Source: Armatimonadetes bacterium 13_1_40CM_64_14
GTDB lineage: Bacteria; Sysuimicrobiota; Sysuimicrobiia; Sysuimicrobiales; Kaftiobacteriaceae
Direction: 5' to 3'
Length of the DNA: 64,000 nucleotides
Assembly (NCBI GenBank): GCA_001917855.1
Contig: MNEU01000005.1
Coordinates: 813-64,812, forward strand
The notes beneath the pieces are model-generated. The model was not told the origin of the DNA and searched no databases. It saw only the letters and a list, made by a program, of their open reading frames with translations. Both the position numbers and the translations under genes were made by a program. Shown piece after piece: positions 45,766 through 54,711 of this stretch (positions within the stretch are counted from its first letter, which is position 1; the number at the start of each line of letters is the position of its first letter).

Positions 45766-45910
45766 GTGCTCTTATCAAGAGTGGGTGAGGGACGGGCCCG
45801 ATGATCCCCGGCAGCCTGTGCGGCACGCCGTCACGCCCGTGCGTGATGTGACCGATGTGTCGTCGCAAGGTGCCAACTCCTACGGAACCAATTCCGAGAG
45901 ATAAGAGGGA
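45766..45910 (+). ncRNA. SAM-I (S-box) riboswitch aptamer
   Basis: Near-consensus cuCUUAUCAAGAGuGGgGGAGGGAcgGGCCCGAUGAucCCCGGCAgCC ... GGUGCCAAcUCCuacgG ... GAGAUAAGAG. P1 strands 45768-45778 / 45899-45908. Confidence 0.85.
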
Positions 45911-45914
45911 CCGG

Positions 45915-45950
45915 TACCCCTCCAATAGGAATTGGGAGGGGATTTTTTGT
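45915..45950 (+). terminator. S-box expression-platform terminator (ccccucc...ggagggg plus U6)
   Basis: tacccctccaataggaattgggaggggattttttg lies immediately before the thrB ATG at 45956. Confidence 0.7.
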
Positions 45951-45955
45951 TGGTT

Positions 45956-46849
45956 ATGGTAACCGTCCGCGTCCCGGCTACAATTGCGAATCTCGGACCA
46001 GCCTTCGACACAGTAGGCGTCGCGGTGACCGTCTACAACACGGTGCATCTCACCCTGGCAGCCTCAGCACATGTGCAGGTGCAGGGATATGGTCAGGGGA
46101 GCGTGCCAGAGGATTCATCCAACCTGGTCTATCGTGCGGCGGCGGAAGTTACTACCCGGGCGGGACGCACGAGTGCCTTTGCGCTGCGGTGTCATAACGA
46201 CATTCCGCCCGGCCGTGGACTGGGAAGCAGCGCCGCGGCCGTGGTCGGCGGCGCGGTCGCGGCCAACGAGGTTCTCGGTCGCCCGCTCAACCAGGAGGAC
46301 CTGTTGGATTTGACCTGGCAGATGGAAGGACACGCGGATAACGCTGCCCCGGCGCTGCTGGGGGGTGTGGTCCTGGCCGATGTGAGCGATGGCGCCGTAC
46401 GGTGGACGCGGATCGTGCCGACCTGGGATGTTGCGCTGGTCGTCGCCGTGCCGGAATTCTGCGTCGCCACCGACCGCGCGCGGGCGGCGCTGCCGCTTCG
46501 CGTGCCCTTGACCGATGCGGTGACCAACATCAGCCACACCGCGTGGCTGGTGACGGCGATGTTGACAGGACGCCCCGACCTTTTGACCACCGCGATGGAT
46601 GACCGACTGCATCAGCCGTATCGCCGGAGCTTGGTGCCGGGGATGGAGGAGGTGTTCGCTGCCGCCCGCGCGGCCGGCGCGTATGGGGCCGCGTTGTGCG
46701 GGAGCGGACCGTCGGTGCTGGCCGTAGTTCCGGCCGCGAAAGCCGACCGCGTCGGCCAGTCCATGGTGGCAACGTTTGCGGGGCACGGACACGCGGCGAG
46801 CTACATCCGCGTCAACATCGACGAGCACGGGGCGACGCTTATCCCCTGA
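45956..46849 (+). CDS. thrB: homoserine kinase (GHMP family)
   Basis: PATIANLGPAFD and GRGLGSSAAAVVGG GHMP motifs. Confidence 0.85.
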   Translation: MVTVRVPATIANLGPAFDTVGVAVTVYNTVHLTLAASAHVQVQGYGQGSVPEDSSNLVYRAAAEVTTRAGRTSAFALRCHNDIPPGRGLGSSAAAVVGGAVAANEVLGRPLNQEDLLDLTWQMEGHADNAAPALLGGVVLADVSDGAVRWTRIVPTWDVALVVAVPEFCVATDRARAALPLRVPLTDAVTNISHTAWLVTAMLTGRPDLLTTAMDDRLHQPYRRSLVPGMEEVFAAARAAGAYGAALCGSGPSVLAVVPAAKADRVGQSMVATFAGHGHAASYIRVNIDEHGATLIP

Positions 46850-46915
46850 AGCGATCCCCCTTCCGGAGGACGCGCGGGGAATGAAAGAGTGACGTGATCA
46901 ATGTGAGGCCGGATA

Positions 46916-48178
46916 ATGTTCGAAGCCAGATTCCCATCGGGGGAGACCATGCCTGAACAGCAATTGCGGTGTCGGGAGTGTAGCGCCATGTACGCGGCGG
47001 GGCCGCGCTATGTATGTGAACAGTGCTTTGGGCCCCTTGAGGTTGTCTACGACTATGCCGCGCTCGCCCGCCAGCCGCTGCGGCAGATAATCGAGACGAG
47101 CGTGCCGTCCATGTGGCGGTATGAGCCTCTGCTGCCCGTGCGCCGGGTGCCCGAGATCGATCTGGAGCCTGGCTATACCCCGTTACTGCCTGCGGGCCGG
47201 CTAGGGCGGACGTTGGGGCTGCGTCGCTTGTTTATCAAGAACGATAGCGTCAATCCCACGTGGTCGTTTAAAGATCGGGTCGTCGGCGTGGCGATGTCTG
47301 CGGCCCGTTCGTTCGGCTACGACGTCGTCGCCTGTGCCTCGACTGGGAACCTCGCTAACGCGGTGGCCGCGCACGCCGGTCGGGCGGGCATGCGGGCCTG
47401 TGTCTTTATTCCCAAGGGGCTGGAACGGGGAAAGGTCCTGGCGACGGCTGCGTACGGGGCCACTTTAGTGGAAGTAGACGGAACCTACGACGAGGTTAAC
47501 CGGCTGTGCGCGGAGATCGCCGAAGAGCACCGCTGGGCATTCGTCAACGTCAACCTGCGGCCCTACTATTCAGAAGGTGGGAAGACGCTCGGGTTCGAGG
47601 TCGCTGAACAGCTCGGCTGGCGGGCGCCCGATCACGTCGTGGTGCCTATCGCGTCGGGCAGTCTCCTCGTCAAGATCCACAAGGGTCTGACCGAGCTGCA
47701 AGCTGTCGGGCTGCTCGAGAGTGTGCCAACGCACGTCCATGGCGCCCAGCCGGCCGGGTGCGCGCCGGTGGCGACGGCGTTTGCTGAAGGGACTTCAGAT
47801 ATTCGGCCCGTCATCCCCAACACGCTCGCACGCTCGCTGGCCATTGGTACCCCTGCAGATGGCCGGTACGTGCTCCGCGTGGCTCGGCAAACGGGGGGCG
47901 CGATCGTGGCCGTGACGGATGACGAGATGGTCGCCAGCATCCAACTCCTTGCGGAGACGGAAGGGGTCTTTACGGAGACGGCCGGGGGTGTCACCATCGC
48001 GGCGTTGCGCGCATTGGCCGCCCGCGGAGCCTTCGGGGAGGACGACATCGTCGTCGCCTACATCACGGGGCAGGGGTTCAAGACCCTCGAGGCCGTCGCG
48101 GATGCGACGCGTCCTCCGATTGCCATCCGGGCGACGCTGAAGGACTTCGAGCGCAATGTCCTCGAGTTGGTAGCCTGA
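46916..48178 (+). CDS. threonine synthase-family PLP enzyme with an N-terminal Cys4 zinc ribbon. Candidate O-phosphohomoserine sulfhydrylase (MetM-like)
   Basis: PLP lysine motif NPTWSFKDR. CRECS...CEQC ribbon. Placed between thrB and a MoaD-like gene, behind a SAM riboswitch. Confidence 0.75.
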   Translation: MFEARFPSGETMPEQQLRCRECSAMYAAGPRYVCEQCFGPLEVVYDYAALARQPLRQIIETSVPSMWRYEPLLPVRRVPEIDLEPGYTPLLPAGRLGRTLGLRRLFIKNDSVNPTWSFKDRVVGVAMSAARSFGYDVVACASTGNLANAVAAHAGRAGMRACVFIPKGLERGKVLATAAYGATLVEVDGTYDEVNRLCAEIAEEHRWAFVNVNLRPYYSEGGKTLGFEVAEQLGWRAPDHVVVPIASGSLLVKIHKGLTELQAVGLLESVPTHVHGAQPAGCAPVATAFAEGTSDIRPVIPNTLARSLAIGTPADGRYVLRVARQTGGAIVAVTDDEMVASIQLLAETEGVFTETAGGVTIAALRALAARGAFGEDDIVVAYITGQGFKTLEAVADATRPPIAIRATLKDFERNVLELVA

Positions 48179-48206
48179 GGCCAGGCGGGGGACGGGGAGG
48201 ATCGGA

Positions 48207-48503
48207 ATGCCGACCGTGCGAATTCCGGCGCCGCTGCGAAAGCTGACCGGAGATCAACGCGTGGTGCAGGCCAGCGGGGCCACGCTCGCGGATTTGGTGA
48301 CAGATCTGGAGCGGCGTTTCCCAGGGATTAAAGGACGCATCATGAGTGCAGATGGCCAGGTCCACAGTTTTGTGAACATCTTCGTCGACGACCAGGATGT
48401 GCGGTTCTTGCAGGGGCTCGCCACCCCGCTGCGGGAGGAAGCGGAAATCGCCATCATCCCCGCGATGGCGGGCGGGATGGATCCAGTCCGGCCCCGGAGG
48501 TGA
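48207..48503 (+). CDS. MoaD/ThiS-family sulfur-carrier protein. Its Gly-Gly is followed by an 8-aa C-terminal extension (MetO/CysO-like)
   Basis: Beta-grasp-like ...EIAIIPAMAGG|MDPVRPRR. 98 aa. 28-nt gap after the thrC-like gene. Confidence 0.65.
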   Translation: MPTVRIPAPLRKLTGDQRVVQASGATLADLVTDLERRFPGIKGRIMSADGQVHSFVNIFVDDQDVRFLQGLATPLREEAEIAIIPAMAGGMDPVRPRR

Positions 48504-48831: not shown

Positions 48832-49347
48832 ATGACCGTGCGACGCAGGGTGATCCGTGTGGCGGTTGTGGTGGCGGTCATTGTGCTTGCCGCCTGGTGG
48901 TTGCTGCGTCCAGCTCGGGGCAGGGTTTCGGTGTACTTTGTGCGTGCCGAGGGCGCCCGCAGCACTTTGCAGGACGTTCCGCGCACGGTCGGGGAGCGGG
49001 GAGCGGAGGCCGTGTTGGCCGCAGCGATCCGCGAGTTGCTCGCGGGCCCCTCTGCGCAGGAACGAACTTCCGGCCTGACGACGGCGATTCCCGCAGGGAC
49101 CAAGTTACGCAGTCTGCGTATCGACAAAGCGATTGTGCTGCTCGATCTCAGCAGCGAGATCGAGTCGGGAGGCGGGAGCGCGATCATGCTGGCCCGGTTT
49201 TGGCAGCTCGTCTACACCGCAACCCAATTTCCTCAGGCGCCCCAGGTACGGATCCTCATAGACGGCGTGGCCAAGTCGGCCCTGGGGGGAGAAGGGGTGT
49301 TGATCGACCGGCCGGTGAGTCGGCCAGCCGCTCTCCCCGAGTTCTAG
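48832..49347 (+). CDS. GerMN-domain protein (membrane-anchored)
   Basis: N-terminal TM segment. GerMN-like VYFV..., AAIRELLAGP, TAIPAGTKL and DGVAKS...GEG motifs. Confidence 0.65.
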   Translation: MTVRRRVIRVAVVVAVIVLAAWWLLRPARGRVSVYFVRAEGARSTLQDVPRTVGERGAEAVLAAAIRELLAGPSAQERTSGLTTAIPAGTKLRSLRIDKAIVLLDLSSEIESGGGSAIMLARFWQLVYTATQFPQAPQVRILIDGVAKSALGGEGVLIDRPVSRPAALPEF

Positions 49348-49402: not shown

Positions 49403-50560
49403 TTGTCAGGAAGTTCTCTTAGGAAGTCCTGTGGGGGAGTTGTCGAGTCCGTCGTGCCCAGTGAAGTTTTCGCCGAAGACATCGAGGCCCTGCTCGAACG
49501 CCTAGATGGCGTCAGCTCCGCCCGCGTCGTGGCCAACGACGCGGGCGAGATCGCGTCCATTTACGTGACGGCCGCCACCACAAGCGAGGAGCCGGTGGTG
49601 CGGCGGATGATTGCCTCCGCCCTCATGTCCCGCTATTCTCTCGCCGTCGACGGGTGGCGCATTCGCATCGCTCGCTTGCAGACCGAGGCTCCCGTGCGCA
49701 CATGGCGTCCCCGGCGCGTGGATGAATCGCTGTCGGGGACGGCCGTCCAGGCGCTAGTGGAACTGGAACCGGTGCACGCGGAGGGCGGGACCCTGGTCGG
49801 TCGCGCCCGATCCTTGCCTGACCGCACCAACCGTCTGCGCGGCTTGGTCTTGGCCACGCTCGACGCTCTGAAGTCTGTCTTGAATGCCGAAGAACGCCGG
49901 GGCGCACTGGAGTCGATCGCCATGCAGCCGCTTGCGGGGCGCGACACAGTGGTGGTCGCCGTTTCCATCGGGTCACCGACGGGCGCCAAACTGTGTGTAG
50001 GATCGGCGGTGGTCGAAGGGAGCGAAGCCGACGCAGTCATCGCGGCAACGCTCGATGCTGTAGGAAAGCGCGGCGTGAAACCGCAACAACGGGGGTGGGG
50101 AATGAAGGATCGTCGTGATGAGCTGGAATCGATGCGGGCACACTACCGACGCCTTCGGGAGCCCCAGCGACAAATGCCGGAGCTCGCGCCCGAAGACGAC
50201 GGAGCCAATAGCGGGGCCGACGACGCAGTACCCGACCAGGCGCAAATTCGACCTGAGCGGCCGGGCGGTGCCGCCATGGCAAGCGGGGCACGGCCTGATG
50301 CGGAGGCGCGGACCGATCAGCCAGCCGCGCGGTCTGCGCAGCGCAGTTCTATGGAAGACGAGTACCTGCGCAGCCTCGTCTCCACGAGCACGCCCGTGCA
50401 CATCCGGTGCCGCGACGGGTACGAGATCCCCGAGGCGGTTATCAAGGATGTCGGGACGTACTCGGTCCTGGTAGAAAGCGACACCGGCCGGGAGCTCGTC
50501 TTTAAGCACGGCATCCTCTCGATCCGTCCGCTGCGGGCTGTGAACCACCTGAGATCCTAA
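49403..50560 (+). CDS. hfq: Hfq (Sm-fold) domain protein with a ~250-aa N-terminal extension and a low-complexity linker. The Hfq domain is roughly 50352..50560
   Basis: The C-terminal 69 aa (MEDEYLRSLVSTSTPVHIRCRDGYEIPEAVIKDVGTYSVLVESDTGRELVFKHGILSI) match the Hfq Sm1/Sm2 pattern (YKHAI). The upstream in-frame region has a protein-like composition. Start is an alternative codon or uncertain. Confidence 0.55.
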   Translation: MSGSSLRKSCGGVVESVVPSEVFAEDIEALLERLDGVSSARVVANDAGEIASIYVTAATTSEEPVVRRMIASALMSRYSLAVDGWRIRIARLQTEAPVRTWRPRRVDESLSGTAVQALVELEPVHAEGGTLVGRARSLPDRTNRLRGLVLATLDALKSVLNAEERRGALESIAMQPLAGRDTVVVAVSIGSPTGAKLCVGSAVVEGSEADAVIAATLDAVGKRGVKPQQRGWGMKDRRDELESMRAHYRRLREPQRQMPELAPEDDGANSGADDAVPDQAQIRPERPGGAAMASGARPDAEARTDQPAARSAQRSSMEDEYLRSLVSTSTPVHIRCRDGYEIPEAVIKDVGTYSVLVESDTGRELVFKHGILSIRPLRAVNHLRS

Positions 50561-50582
50561 CCCCCGGCCCGGCGGCTACACC

Positions 50583-50633
50583 ACGAGGGAACACGGAAAG
50601 CGGGAGCTGGAGCGTCCGTATCCGTGTTCCCTC
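50583..50633 (+). other. 13-bp perfect inverted repeat (cgagggaacacgg / ccgtgttccctcg) 22 nt after the hfq-like stop. Candidate U-less terminator or structured RNA
   Basis: Seen directly in the sequence. The loop is 25 nt and no U-tract follows. Confidence 0.35.
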
Positions 50634-50940
50634 GCGGGTTAGGGCTGACGCGTCCGATCCATAGCAACTGCAGGGTCAGCTGGTCTGTGACTCCAGCGCA
50701 CGGTGTACCACCCCCTATTTTGCGGGTCTCTCGCGGGCATAGCGGTGACATCATCGAGCCACGCTTCGTGCGTCCCCGCCTTGATCGCCGCGCCGGCGAC
50801 CTAGGGCACGACACTGGGGGATTTACCCGTCGAAAGCGGGGGGGCCTTCGTTGTGAGCGAGATGTCGCGGGCTCAGGACGCACGGTCGATGAAGAGGAGG
50901 GTCCCCCCAAAGCGCGGAATGTCTACCGAGGTTTCCCATC

Positions 50941-51507: not shown

Positions 51508-51727
51508 TCTCGCACACGGCGAGCTGGCGACCGTGTCGTCCGTGTCGCGCGTTGCAGGCGTGTCTGTGTGCGTGGTCCGGCCTCGACGACCCCCTCTACT
51601 GTCCTCGGCGCTCACCGCGGGGAAATCGCGTAACGCGTGATGCGCACCTACCGTGAGTTCGGCTTGTATACAATGGATGCATACCGAGGCGCGCGCAGGC
51701 TTTGGGGAGTCGACCGAGGCGAACGTC

Positions 51728-53383
51728 ATGGCTACCGGCAAACGCGACCGCGATCCTGATCACCAGGCGAAAAACGCTCATCCGCCGAAAGGGGCGCAGG
51801 CTCCGAAGGCCGTGTCTACCCCCGACCGCATCGAAATTCGCAACGTCTACACCCCCGCTGACGCACCGGTGGACTACTCAGGAGACGTGGGATTTCCGGG
51901 TCAGTACCCGTTTACCCGCGGGATCTATCCCACGATGTATCGAGGGCGGTTATGGACGATGCGGCAATACGCTGGCTATGGCGCGGCGGAGGAGTCCAAC
52001 CGGCGGTTCCGCTACCTGCTGAGCCAAGGCCAGACCGGTTTGTCCGTCGCCTTCGACCTGCCGACGCAGATGGGGTACGATTCCGACCATCCGATGGCGG
52101 AGGCCGAAATCGGGAAGGTGGGAGTGGCCATCGACACCCTCGCCGACATGGAGGCGCTGTTCGATGGCCTGCCGTTGGCCCAGGTGACGACCTCCATGAC
52201 CATCAACGCCACGGCGTCGATCCTGCTGGCCATGTATATCGCCACGGCGGAGCGGCAGGGAGTGCCGCCTGCTGCGCTGGATGGCACGACGCAGAACGAC
52301 ATCCTCAAAGAGTACATCGCGCGGGGGACGTACATCTTCCCTCCCACGCCGTCGCTGCGCCTCGTGACCGACATGTTTGCGTACTGCGCCGAGCACCTCC
52401 CGAAGTGGATCCCGATTTCCATCAGCGGATACCACATCCGCGAAGCAGGCGCAACCGCCGTGCAAGAAGTCGCGTTCACGTTGGCCAACGGGATCGCGTA
52501 TCTGCAGGCCGCCGCGAACGCGGGGCTGGATGTCGATCGCATCGCCCCCCGAGTGTCGTTTTTCTTCGCGGCCCAGATGAACGTGCTGGAGGAGGTCGCC
52601 AAATTCCGGGCGGCCCGCCGGCTGTGGGCGCGCATTACCCGAGAACGCTTTCACGCCCAGGACCCCAAGGCGTGGGTGCTGCGGTTTCACACGCAGACGG
52701 CCGGCGCCGCGCTGACCGCCCAGCAACCCGACAACAACGTCGTCCGGGTGACCCTTCAGGCGCTGGCAGCGGTCTTGGGGGGGACACAGTCGTTGCACAC
52801 CAACGCCAAAGACGAGGCCCTTGCGCTGCCGACTGATGCCTCGGCCCTGCTGGCGCTGCGTACGCAGCAGATCCTGGCATATGAGACCGGGGTCGCCGAT
52901 ACCGTCGACCCCCTGGCGGGATCGTACTACGTCGAGGCGCTGACGCAGCAGATCGAACAACAATCAGACGCGCTGATCCGGCAGATCGGGGATGCGGGGG
53001 GGATGGTGCGGGCGCTAGAGGCGGGGATCATTCAGCGGCACATTGCCGAATCCGCCTACCGCGAGGCGACCCGGATCGAAACCGGTGAACAGATTGTCGT
53101 GGGAGTGAACCAGTTCCAAGGAGACGCGGCGGTTCCTCCGCCCCTCTTGCGGATGCCCTCCGACATCGTGCCGCGGCAGAAGGCGCGGCTCGCCCGCGTG
53201 CGGAGCGAGCGCAGCGGGGACGAGGTGCAGCGAGCGCTGATGCGGTTACGTCGGGCGGCCGGCGGGTCGGAGAACCTGATGCCCCACATCCTCGAGGCGG
53301 TAAAGGCCTATGCGACCCTTGGCGAGATCTGCGACACCCTGCGCGCCGTCTTTGGTGTGCACAAACCCGCTGCGGTAGTGTGA
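51728..53383 (+). CDS. methylmalonyl-CoA mutase-family catalytic (TIM-barrel) subunit, lacking the B12-binding domain
   Basis: [30 protein letters not shown] and the rest of the MCM N-terminal domain. About 550 aa without a C-terminal cobalamin domain. Confidence 0.85.
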
Positions 53384-53386
53384 TCC

Positions 53387-54322
53387 GTGCACGCGCTGGT
53401 CTCTGAGGCATTGGCCGGGTCGGCGCAGGCGGTCGCACGGCTCATCTCTCTGGTGGAAGCCGGGGATCCCGACGGAGCGGTCGTGCTGCGCGAGTTGCAC
53501 CCTCGGACAGGCCGGGCGTATGTCATCGGGGTGACGGGCCCGCCAGGGGCGGGGAAGAGCACGCTGGTGGACGCCTCCACCGGGGTGTTGCGCAAGCAAG
53601 GGAGGACGGTCGCCGTCGTCGCCGTTGATCCGACCAGCCCCTTCACGGGCGGCGCGCTCCTGGGCGACCGCATCCGGATGCAAGATCACGCCACCGATCC
53701 CGGTGTGTTCATCCGGAGTATGGCCACGCGCGGCAGCCTGGGCGGGTTGGCCCCTGCAACCGCAGATGCGGTCCGCATTCTTGACGCAACAGGCTACGAA
53801 TGCATTTTCATCGAGACGGTCGGCACCGGCCAGGCAGAGGTGGATGTGGTGAGCGTGGCCGATACCGTCGCCATCGTGCTCGTGCCGGGGATGGGCGACA
53901 CCGTGCAGACTATGAAGGCGGGCATCATGGAGATCGGTGAGGTTTTCGTTGTGAACAAGGCTGATCAGGGCGATCCCGACCGCACCGCGGCAGAGATCCG
54001 GATGATGCTGCAGCTGAATCCGCACCCCACGGGGTGGACAGTGCCGGTCGTCAAAACAGTCGCAACGTCGGGGCAGGGGATCGAGGAGGCGCTGGCGGCG
54101 ATCGACGCCCACCACCGGTACTTGTCTGCCGATGGGTCATTAGAGCGCCGACGCAAGGCACGCCGGCGCGAGGAGATCCTTCGGATCGTGGAGGCCCGGA
54201 CGCGGATGCGTGCGCGGGAGCTGGCCCACCGCAGCGGACGTCTGGAACAACTGGCCGATCGTGTCCATGCCGGAGAGATTGATCCCTACGCCGCGGCGGA
54301 GGAGCTCCTCAAGCAGGCATGA
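53387..54322 (+). CDS. meaB: methylmalonyl-CoA mutase-associated GTPase MeaB/ArgK
   Basis: VIGVTGPPGAGKSTLVDA P-loop and ...VVNKAD. Confidence 0.85.
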   Translation: MHALVSEALAGSAQAVARLISLVEAGDPDGAVVLRELHPRTGRAYVIGVTGPPGAGKSTLVDASTGVLRKQGRTVAVVAVDPTSPFTGGALLGDRIRMQDHATDPGVFIRSMATRGSLGGLAPATADAVRILDATGYECIFIETVGTGQAEVDVVSVADTVAIVLVPGMGDTVQTMKAGIMEIGEVFVVNKADQGDPDRTAAEIRMMLQLNPHPTGWTVPVVKTVATSGQGIEEALAAIDAHHRYLSADGSLERRRKARRREEILRIVEARTRMRARELAHRSGRLEQLADRVHAGEIDPYAAAEELLKQA

Positions 54323-54711
54323 TCTGTGACCACCTCGGAATCGCGGTGCGTGATCTCGCCGAGGCGGCCCGCCTGTACACGAGCGCCTTCGGCTTGCAGG
54401 TGACGGAACGGTATACCCTCCCAGGGGAGGGGGTCCGGATTGCCTTCCTGCCGTCCGGAGCGATTGATCTTGAACTCCTCGAACCGATCGATGACGGCGG
54501 AAGTGTAGCAAAGTTTCTGGCCACCCGAGGCCCCGGGCTCCACCACATCGCCTTTCGAGTTCCCGACATCGAGGCAGCCCTCGTGCGGGCGACCGCCGCC
54601 GGCTGCACCATCGTCGCTCCCGGTCCCCACCCGGGGGCCCGCGGGCACCTCATCGCCTTCCTGCATCCCGCCACTAGCGGTGGGGTCCTCATCGAATTCG
54701 TGCAACGCTGA
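54319..54711 (+). CDS. methylmalonyl-CoA epimerase (VOC family)
   Basis: MICDHLGIAV...GPGLHHIAFRVPDI...LIEF. 4-nt overlap with meaB. Confidence 0.8.
   Translation: MICDHLGIAVRDLAEAARLYTSAFGLQVTERYTLPGEGVRIAFLPSGAIDLELLEPIDDGGSVAKFLATRGPGLHHIAFRVPDIEAALVRATAAGCTIVAPGPHPGARGHLIAFLHPATSGGVLIEFVQR

Follow-up and report, generated by a model that had tools for sequence, protein, structure and literature searches.

An Hfq core joined to a large N-terminal module in a conserved gene of uncultured Sysuimicrobiota

Hfq is the model bacterial RNA chaperone, whose known diversity resides in its C-terminal tails and surface residues and whose role beyond Proteobacteria is unclear. The canonical protein is a small single domain of ~70-110 aa. 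The locus described here raises the question of whether an hfq gene can carry a large additional domain ahead of its Sm core and, if so, what such a protein might do. It lies in a 64,000-nucleotide stretch (hereafter the window; contig MNEU01000005.1, positions 813 to 64,812) from Armatimonadetes bacterium 13_1_40CM_64_14, for which a reading made from the sequence alone had placed an Hfq domain at the end of a 385-aa open reading frame (ORF), leaving two possibilities: an unusual fusion, or a short hfq lying within a long frame that high GC content keeps open. The answer is the first of these. The gene encodes a single conserved polypeptide of 368 aa, in which ~300 N-terminal residues are joined to Hfq. 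The coding sequence and the element that precedes it are as follows.

49454..50560, + strand: coding sequence of the fused hfq, 368 aa plus a TAA stop, GTG start at 49454
49433..49439, + strand: possible Shine-Dalgarno (SD) sequence GGGGGAG, read from the sequence, 14 nt before GTG 49454, a long spacing

The 385-aa frame is indeed present, from TTG 49403 to the end of the gene (49403..50560, + strand), but its 17 extra N-terminal residues are unconserved. Because the N-termini of the homologues coincide in the alignment at the segment M/V-P-S/R-E-V-F-A-E (M/V-PSEVFAED), which matches GTG 49454, this codon and not TTG 49403 is most likely the translation start, as judged from sequence comparison. 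The 368-aa product is an exact gene call in public assemblies, whereas a look-up found no gene call for the 385-aa form on record there. The GC content at third codon positions (GC3), which had been proposed as a check across the ORF, was 0.74 and proved uniform and gene-like along its length, similar to that of the neighbouring genes.

The fusion extends well beyond this genome. A search of 5.8 billion proteins gave 221 protein clusters homologous to the fused protein, down to 40% identity and with a query coverage of 93-100%, nearly all of them 353-436 aa long, and a scan of one genome per species found the fused frame kept at 55 species-level loci, all in metagenome-assembled genomes (MAGs). 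Every full-length homologue found was fused, and no stand-alone short form of hfq was present among the 221 homologues and 55 loci, the shorter matches being contig-end cuts or fragments. The pattern of nucleotide change was that of a translated gene throughout. In comparisons with relatives at 92% to 55% protein identity, the N-terminal 207 codons differed at rates of 0.05/0.01/0.20 at codon positions 1/2/3 from the relative L001 and of 0.18/0.14/0.56 from L004, and the codons of the Hfq part displayed a similar third-position excess of differences. The proposal of an N-terminal domain truly fused to Hfq was upheld by these homologues, loci and codon patterns, as well as by the confident fold and the stand-alone homologues of the N-terminal part described below. 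Family counts given from here on refer to an alignment of 106 sequences. Two distant members of the fused family, P0134 (458 aa) and P0137 (329 aa), were found to be near-identical over their N-terminal ~220 residues. From there on P0137 has no Hfq core but an Arg/Pro-rich tail of unrelated sequence, probably the result of a frameshift in the metagenome assembly and not a protein that naturally lacks Hfq.

The MAGs carrying the 55 loci are labelled Armatimonadota or Armatimonadetes (including the name-giving CSP1-3 genome), 'Bacillati bacterium ANGP1', in some cases Bacillota or Firmicutes, Candidatus Fervidifonticultor, Calidihabitans, Geohabitans or simply 'bacterium'. Fervidifonticultor is assigned to the phylum Candidatus Sysuimicrobiota in the NCBI taxonomy, and Fervidifonticultor, Calidihabitans and Geohabitans are named as Sysuimicrobiota MAGs in the CSP1-3 paper, which describes 112 CSP1-3 MAGs (PMC11604079). 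As far as MAG labels tell, the fused gene is a conserved one that belongs to the uncultured Sysuimicrobiota (CSP1-3).

The C-terminal part of the protein was examined by profile searches and by structures predicted with AlphaFold2 (AF2), which was run at full length with the 106-sequence alignment and, separately, on residues 1-236.

50351..50533, + strand: Hfq (Sm) core, residues 300-360, an N-terminal helix and five strands, with the Sm2 motif FKHGI and the signature HIRCRDGYEI

The sequence-only reading had called this Hfq fold unmistakable, which holds at the level of the family and of structure, whereas the single sequence falls just under the Pfam threshold: the proposed search with PF17209 did match the C-terminus (aa 319-380 of the 385-aa ORF, E 7e-6), at 26.0 bits versus a gathering cut-off of 27, and the match to the NCBIfam Hfq equivalogs was weak (24 bits versus cut-offs of 61.7-95 bits). 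All 106 aligned family members matched PF17209 at E <= 1, the best with E 1.5e-8, and most of them bear a precomputed match to it. Searched against the sequences of the PDB, the family profile retrieved 35 Hfq or Hfq-like entries, led by Thermotoga maritima 4y91 (E 2.4e-7) and Bacillus subtilis 3ahu/3hsb (8e-6), and the full-length profile found Hfq chains only. In the AF2 model the core consists of a helix (residues 300-311) and strands within 314-359, with a predicted local distance difference test (pLDDT) score of 94-96, and in Foldseek more than 45 Hfq chains superposed on it with template-modelling (TM) scores of 0.75-0.92. With canonical Hfq (T. maritima 4y91, B. subtilis 3hsb, Escherichia coli 1hk9) the fused core shares, at 21-31% identity, the Sm fold of one helix and five strands, the Sm2 motif [YF]KH[AG]I, the pocket residue Asp9, an aromatic residue at position 42, Lys56 and His57.

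A residue map in E. coli numbering, drawn against the E. coli, T. maritima and B. subtilis proteins, revealed which of the RNA-binding surfaces are kept. In the proximal pocket Asp9 is present in 105/106 sequences, a Tyr occupies position 42 in 104/106 (as in T. maritima), and Lys56 and His57, preceded by a Phe at position 55, are found in 106/106, while Gln8 is replaced by Glu in 103/106. The rim positions 16/17/19 hold V/M/I, A/T/S and G, respectively (V/A/G in the window), and form no arginine patch. On the distal face the tyrosine is gone, Tyr25 being replaced by Arg in 103/106 and Val27 by Arg in 105/106, with the further changes of Asn28 to Asp, Ile30 to Tyr, and Lys31 and Gln52 to Glu; the HIRCRDGYEI signature includes an invariant Cys. 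Judged by its residues, the proximal 3'-U pocket seems to be mostly intact, unlike the two other RNA surfaces of the proteobacterial protein. It should be considered that the rim patch is weak in Gram-positive Hfq too, and hence is not universal in Hfq. Glu8, the missing rim patch, Arg25, the HIRCRDGYEI signature and an acidic charge set the fused core apart from the canonical ones. Fold and core motif place the protein in the Hfq family; its architecture is new and its RNA surfaces are altered.

The first 207 residues of the protein were modelled as three domains.

49454..49681, + strand: D1, residues 1-76, predicted alpha-beta-beta-alpha-beta, ferredoxin-like, an AF2 block with pLDDT ~78-95
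49703..49891, + strand: D2, residues 84-146, first predicted beta-beta-beta-alpha unit plus a short extra helix (AF2, hhalign, Foldseek)
49898..50074, + strand: D3, residues 149-207, second predicted beta-beta-beta-alpha unit (AF2, hhalign, Foldseek)

The full-length AF2 model had a mean pLDDT of 81 and a predicted TM (pTM) score of 0.49, and that of residues 1-236 reached a pLDDT of 87 and a pTM of 0.74. Because pTM is higher in the N-terminal model, the ~207 residues of D1-D3 are predicted to form one compact module (hereafter the N-module), and the low pTM at full length is consistent with a tethered module that does not pack against the Sm core. D1 is acidic (mean isoelectric point, pI, 4.8) and ranks with the best-conserved stretches of the protein, its mean identity to the window protein (70%) equalling that of the basic helix described below and of the Hfq core; its matches, weak and of the ferredoxin-like type, were to zinc-transporter C-terminal domains and ring-building motifs in Foldseek, and to HMA and TonB_C. 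In D2 the model places strands within residues 84-120 and a helix at 124-138, and in D3 strands within 149-186 and a helix at 191-204/207; D2 is about neutral (pI 6.8) and D3, like D1, acidic (pI 4.8-4.9 for the two). The two related segments of ~50 aa that had been noticed in the sequence were confirmed as an internal duplication, since profiles of residues 82-147 and 148-208 aligned in hhalign with P 9e-7 and a probability of 91%. No Pfam or NCBIfam model matched the N-terminal region of the fused proteins, and we found no NCBIfam model for the N-module. Its profile retrieved nothing credible among PDB sequences; the best match there, to ribosomal protein uL22, had an E value of only 0.11 and was judged spurious.

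A phmmer search with residues 1-236 against 1.84 billion cluster representatives gave 449 matches, a few dozen of which belonged to the fused family, either as proteins of 375-458 aa or as pieces of these. The remainder were proteins of ~205-230 aa, matched in a single stretch over residues ~8-206 and over nearly their whole length, with 25-36% identity and E values of 1e-18 to 1e-8, and named hypothetical in MAGs of Clostridia, Carboxydocella, other Firmicutes, Coriobacteriia and Actinomycetota. In a joint alignment of fused and stand-alone proteins, D66, V102, G116, A134, A138, G183, A198, L200 and A202 were shared. By sequence homology the N-module belongs to this uncharacterised stand-alone family of ~215 aa (for instance P0136, P0274 and P0374), for which neither Pfam nor NCBIfam has a model. 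The stand-alone proteins have the same three-part layout but lack the basic helix, the linker and the Hfq domain, and the two groups diverge at certain conserved positions, for instance in His37 versus Tyr37 and in the motif PKQ-VRD versus RR-V-SALMS. Their genes were read at the following loci, in MAGs of Firmicutes and of Actinomycetota/Coriobacteriia and in Carboxydocella.

L056, 6001-6654: stand-alone homologue
L057 and L058, 6001-6663: stand-alone homologues
L059, 5001-5657: stand-alone homologue
L060, 5001-5660: stand-alone homologue
L061, 1416-2060: stand-alone homologue

Five distinct settings were read. Four of them show the stand-alone gene (X) in the order (csp)-hpf-X-HD_5-HD_5-DUF5317-secA, where csp encodes a cold-shock protein and HD_5 an HD-GYP-type protein; the fifth has the order HSP20-X-secA. 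The recurring order hints at a connection of the stand-alone family with HD-GYP-type nucleotide signalling or with the hibernation of ribosomes. X is separated from its neighbours on either side by 200-340 nt and may or may not be co-transcribed with them. The hpf/HD_5/secA setting occurs with the stand-alone forms only and was found neither in the window nor at the 55 fused loci.

The fold of D2-D3 was assigned with Foldseek as the single structural search method. LeuA of Mycobacterium tuberculosis ranked first (3hps, 3fig, 1sr9; E 1e-5 over 160-172 columns), and the regulatory domain of Leptospira interrogans citramalate synthase (3f6h) aligned over 124 columns, with a TM score of 0.56 on the target and a root-mean-square deviation (rmsd) of 4.0 A. 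Sequence matches in the stand-alone family pointed the same way: 22 of 123 stand-alone relatives matched the Pfam model LeuA_dimer (PF08502), the best with E 1e-7. In P0140 (residues 88-208) and P0149 (residues 86-208) the PF08502 match falls on D2-D3 and is weak, at 11.7 and 15.2 bits versus a cut-off of 24.9, and the matches examined ran over model positions 18-129 of 131. Taken from structure and transitive homology, D2-D3 resemble in their predicted fold the allosteric dimerisation domain of LeuA and citramalate synthase (PF08502; 1sr9, 3fig, 3f6h), in which, too, two tandem beta-beta-beta-alpha units arose as a duplication. In the synthases this domain follows an HMGL-like catalytic domain on its C-terminal side, and the pathway end product (Leu or Ile) is bound where two such domains dimerise, whereas the N-module comes without the synthase catalytic domain and is preceded instead by the ferredoxin-like domain of 76 residues.

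Between the N-module and the Sm core lie three further elements.

50099..50161, + strand: conserved basic helix DRRDELESMRAHYRRLRE, residues 216-236
50162..50350, + strand: predicted disordered linker, residues 237-299, net acidic and Pro/Ala-rich
50246..50272, + strand: motif I-R-P-E-R-P-G-G-A, residues 265-273, within the linker, near-invariant in the 106-sequence alignment

The basic helix (mean pI 9.2; helical at 216-235 in AF2) has D219, R220 and E225 nearly invariant and lies outside the region matched by the stand-alone relatives, which ends near residue 206. The linker, with pLDDT values of ~44-56, varies from 48 to 132 aa in the family and contains on average 14 acidic versus 9 basic residues, so that its description as D/E/A/P-rich held across the 106 sequences. 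The motif within it, with the family form I-R-P-E-R-x-G-G-A, is kept nearly throughout the family (R266 in 106, P267 in 106, E268 in 104, R269 in 102, G271 in 104, G272 in 105 and A273 in 100 of the 106 sequences), and RP[EQD]xxGG occurs in 103/106. Because it is strictly conserved inside a variable disordered segment, its conservation points to a putative binding site for the ring, the N-module, RNA or a partner.

These observations can be integrated in a joint explanation that we hold with moderate confidence: a fused Hfq ring that binds U-rich RNA proximally, with dimerising N-modules that regulate or target this binding. The Sm cores would assemble into the usual hexameric ring, which would bind U-rich RNA 3' ends on its proximal face and would probably not be a classical three-surface matchmaker of small RNA (sRNA) and mRNA. 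Six tethered N-modules would surround each ring and might pair through their LeuA-like dimerisation surfaces, so that a ring would hold three dimers or be bridged to other rings. The modules would act as a regulatory or adaptor unit, sensing a small molecule or docking a partner, and the acidic linker and its motif might transmit the signal by masking the basic residues of the ring (the conserved arginines) or leaving them free. Such masking would be analogous to the action of the acidic C-terminal tail that is reported to autoregulate E. coli Hfq (PMC5606850). A more specific version, which we regard as possible but rather unlikely, is a metabolite- or partner-gated RNA chaperone, in which the LeuA-type module would switch the Hfq ring between a closed and an RNA-accessible state through its dimerisation and the IRPERxGGA tether; the module would then sense an amino acid or a nucleotide messenger, or dock a component of translation or hibernation.

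Several results weigh against the joint explanation. The fused proteins themselves gave no PF08502 match, the window sequence included (0/106 at E <= 1), and hhalign of the N-module against E. coli LeuA and against a gammaproteobacterial LeuA profile fell in the right register with non-significant scores (P 0.024 and 0.077), that profile of 84 mostly gammaproteobacterial C-termini being too narrow and its hidden Markov model missing the Pfam-positive members. The AF2 monomer docks the motif nowhere. No RNA-related genes were found among the neighbours of the fused hfq, either in the window or at the 55 loci. Finally, the net charge of the core is ~-2 (family mean) versus ~+3 to +4 in the E. 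coli and T. maritima cores, and this acidity, together with the replacement of Gln8 by Glu, indicates that RNA binding may be weak or lost.

The last point is also the basis of the main rival, in which the Sm ring would be a mere oligomerisation scaffold that makes the N-module hexavalent and no longer acts on RNA. The net acidic core, the change of Gln8 to Glu, the loss of the rim arginines and of the distal Tyr25, and the fact that the N-module stands alone in hundreds of other genomes all speak for it. The precedent of cyanobacterial Hfq, which has lost canonical RNA-binding residues and acts via protein partners, counts in its favour as well. However, a scaffold need not keep a uridine pocket, and here Lys56 and His57 are invariant, Tyr42 is kept in 104/106 and Asp9 in 105/106; moreover, the new arginines at positions 25 (103/106) and 27 (105/106) would suit contact with nucleic acid. 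The scaffold is thus a serious alternative that we nevertheless consider to be the less probable account.

A further possibility, which appears improbable, is that the beta-beta-beta-alpha units are akin to double-stranded-RNA-binding domains (dsRBDs), so that the protein would be a multi-site RNA binder combining duplex RNA with Hfq. Foldseek did return the tandem dsRBD proteins DCL3, TARBP2, MLE and Loquacious (E 3e-4 to 3e-2), and in our own reading a G-x-A-x-G followed by an Ala-rich helix recalls the beta3-alpha2 region of a dsRBD. Yet these superpositions have an rmsd of 12-46 A over the aligned columns versus 4.0 A for the citramalate synthase regulatory domain, the units come without the first dsRBD helix, the lysine-rich helix start is absent, the module is acidic in D1 and D3 (pI 4.8-4.9) and neutral in D2, and the sequence matches go to LeuA_dimer instead.

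It is even less probable that one gene yields two products, a long protein and a short Hfq that would do the Hfq work, formed by initiation at the internal ATG or by cleavage in the linker. The internal ATG exists, at 50351-50353 and not at the previously given 50352, and was correctly described as having no SD-like sequence ahead of it; its Met falls exactly where canonical Hfq begins, and a disordered linker would be accessible to proteases. Nevertheless, among 43 relatives this codon is ATG in only 23, GTG in 4 and a non-start codon in 16 (GTT, GTC, GTA, CTC, CTG, CTT, TTT, ACG, CAA, CAG or GGC), and an SD-like core precedes it in 2/43, so that no ribosome-binding site is conserved. Since canonical Hfq carries Leu or Ile at this position, the Met is accounted for without a role as a start and is, from the alignment, a plain hydrophobic residue of the helix. 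As for the other possibility left by the sequence-only reading, a short hfq annotated within a long ORF held open by high GC, it is refuted: a GC content of ~65% does yield many long spurious ORFs in the window and the single-sequence Pfam match spans the last 62 residues only, but conservation over the whole length down to 40% identity, the codon-position pattern of substitution, the confident AF2 fold of the N-terminal part, its stand-alone homologues and the unconserved internal start all contradict it.

Long extensions of Hfq are known on the C-terminal side, in Acinetobacter and Moraxella, and tandem-Hfq proteins exist as well (NCBIfam NF010691). The E. coli tail described above resembles the linker of the fused protein in being a disordered, net acidic segment on an Sm core that could compete with RNA; it differs in that the appendage of the fused protein is N-terminal, contains a nine-residue motif and ends in a folded module of 207 residues. 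A more distant analogy, useful for the adaptor role only, is offered by the eukaryotic Lsm11, through whose N-terminal extension of ~170 aa FLASH and processing factors are brought to the U7 snRNP (PMC3710366). In both cases an Sm domain carries a long N-terminal extension, which in Lsm11 recruits partners, but Lsm11 is a eukaryotic member of a hetero-heptamer, and its extension is unrelated in sequence and not LeuA-like. Literature searches found no description of Hfq bearing either a folded domain at its N-terminus or a LeuA-type module, and Hfq goes unmentioned in two CSP1-3 genome papers, one of them PMC11604079 with its supplements.

Within the clade, the order of the genes flanking the fused hfq is conserved. 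E. coli has the order miaA-hfq-hflX, whereas the fused hfq adjoins neither of these partners. The following elements were found around it in the window.

45769-45907: S-adenosylmethionine (SAM) riboswitch RF00162, 77.6 bits, preceding three co-oriented genes (45769-48503, + strand)
45932-46849, + strand: GHMP kinase, homoserine-kinase-like, upstream of the fused hfq in 23/55 loci
46916-48178, + strand: ThrC-like pyridoxal phosphate (PLP) enzyme with an N-terminal Cys-rich stretch, in 30/55 loci
48207-48503, + strand: ThiS-family sulfur-carrier protein, in 36/55 loci
48832-49347, + strand: GerM (Germane, PF10646), hydrophobic in an N-terminal segment, encoded 106 nt ahead of the fused hfq in the window; counted at 46/55 loci irrespective of its position and orientation there
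51653-53383, + strand: methylmalonyl-CoA mutase
53387-54322, + strand: MeaB GTPase
54319-54711, + strand: Glyoxalase_4 protein, which we take to be a probable methylmalonyl-CoA epimerase

The riboswitch block looks like a SAM-controlled methionine/homocysteine route via a protein thiocarboxylate and O-phosphohomoserine, and it recalls the MetM/MetO system. The association of GerM with the fused hfq may reflect an operon or only clade-wide synteny. Downstream, a GNAT gene was found at 38 and methylmalonyl-CoA mutase at 37 of the 55 loci, where MeaB also appears, and in distant relatives either a carboxyltransferase-like gene or a GNAT gene begins right after the hfq stop. In our reading, the N-terminus encoded by the former resembles the beta/carboxyltransferase subunit of propionyl-CoA carboxylase. 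This post-stop gene, together with the mutase cluster, places the fused hfq at the edge of a propionate/methylmalonyl-CoA block across the clade.

Immediately downstream of the stop codon the sequence-only reading had noted a 380-bp non-coding stretch and a strong 13-bp hairpin.

50584..50634, + strand: hairpin, 24 nt after the stop, with a perfect 14-bp stem (50584-50597/50621-50634) and a small inner stem
50561..50940, no strand: spacer before a GNAT acetyltransferase gene, 380 bp, non-coding and lineage-specific

The spacer was found as described; it and its vicinity had no Rfam match, the SAM riboswitch being the sole one in the window, and a promoter scan found none. Single-base indels among three close relatives argue that it is non-coding, and it is missing in more distant relatives. 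The hairpin is strong, as stated, but its stem is a perfect one of 14 rather than 13 bp. Its stability is -41.7 kcal/mol (z -6.8) in the window and -27.1 kcal/mol (z -3.8) in L001, and non-significant (z -1.2) in L002; it has no T tract and was missed by a terminator scan that requires a T run, and it is probably a lineage-specific terminator or 3'-end stabiliser. The possibility of a conserved RNA element tied to hfq was dropped, given that the spacer as a whole folds unremarkably (z -1.35) and the hairpin is unconserved in L002. The spacer does not belong to the fusion finding. Its best-conserved part among the three close relatives is the last ~60 nt (50880-50940). The sequence GAAGAGGAGGG lies ~40 nt before the GNAT start GTG 50941, too distant for a normal ribosome-binding site, and a 22-codon ORF from ATG 50919 overlaps that start in another frame.

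The databases label the fused proteins 'RNA chaperone Hfq', 'sRNA-binding regulator protein Hfq' or hypothetical, and these labels hide the fused architecture. Behind them lies a widespread uncultured phylum of deep soils and hot springs in which an Hfq is permanently tethered to a predicted allosteric fold of the amino-acid-sensing type. The fusion acts as a 'Rosetta stone', connecting an orphan family of ~215 aa, encoded beside a hibernation factor gene, to the biology of RNA and translation. If the module controls the ring, the protein would represent a natural ligand- or partner-regulated Hfq and a ready design for engineering. Should the gated chaperone, unlikely as we consider it, prove true, metabolic state would be directly coupled to Hfq-dependent RNA control across the phylum, and a first function would be found for the orphan family encoded between hpf and secA.

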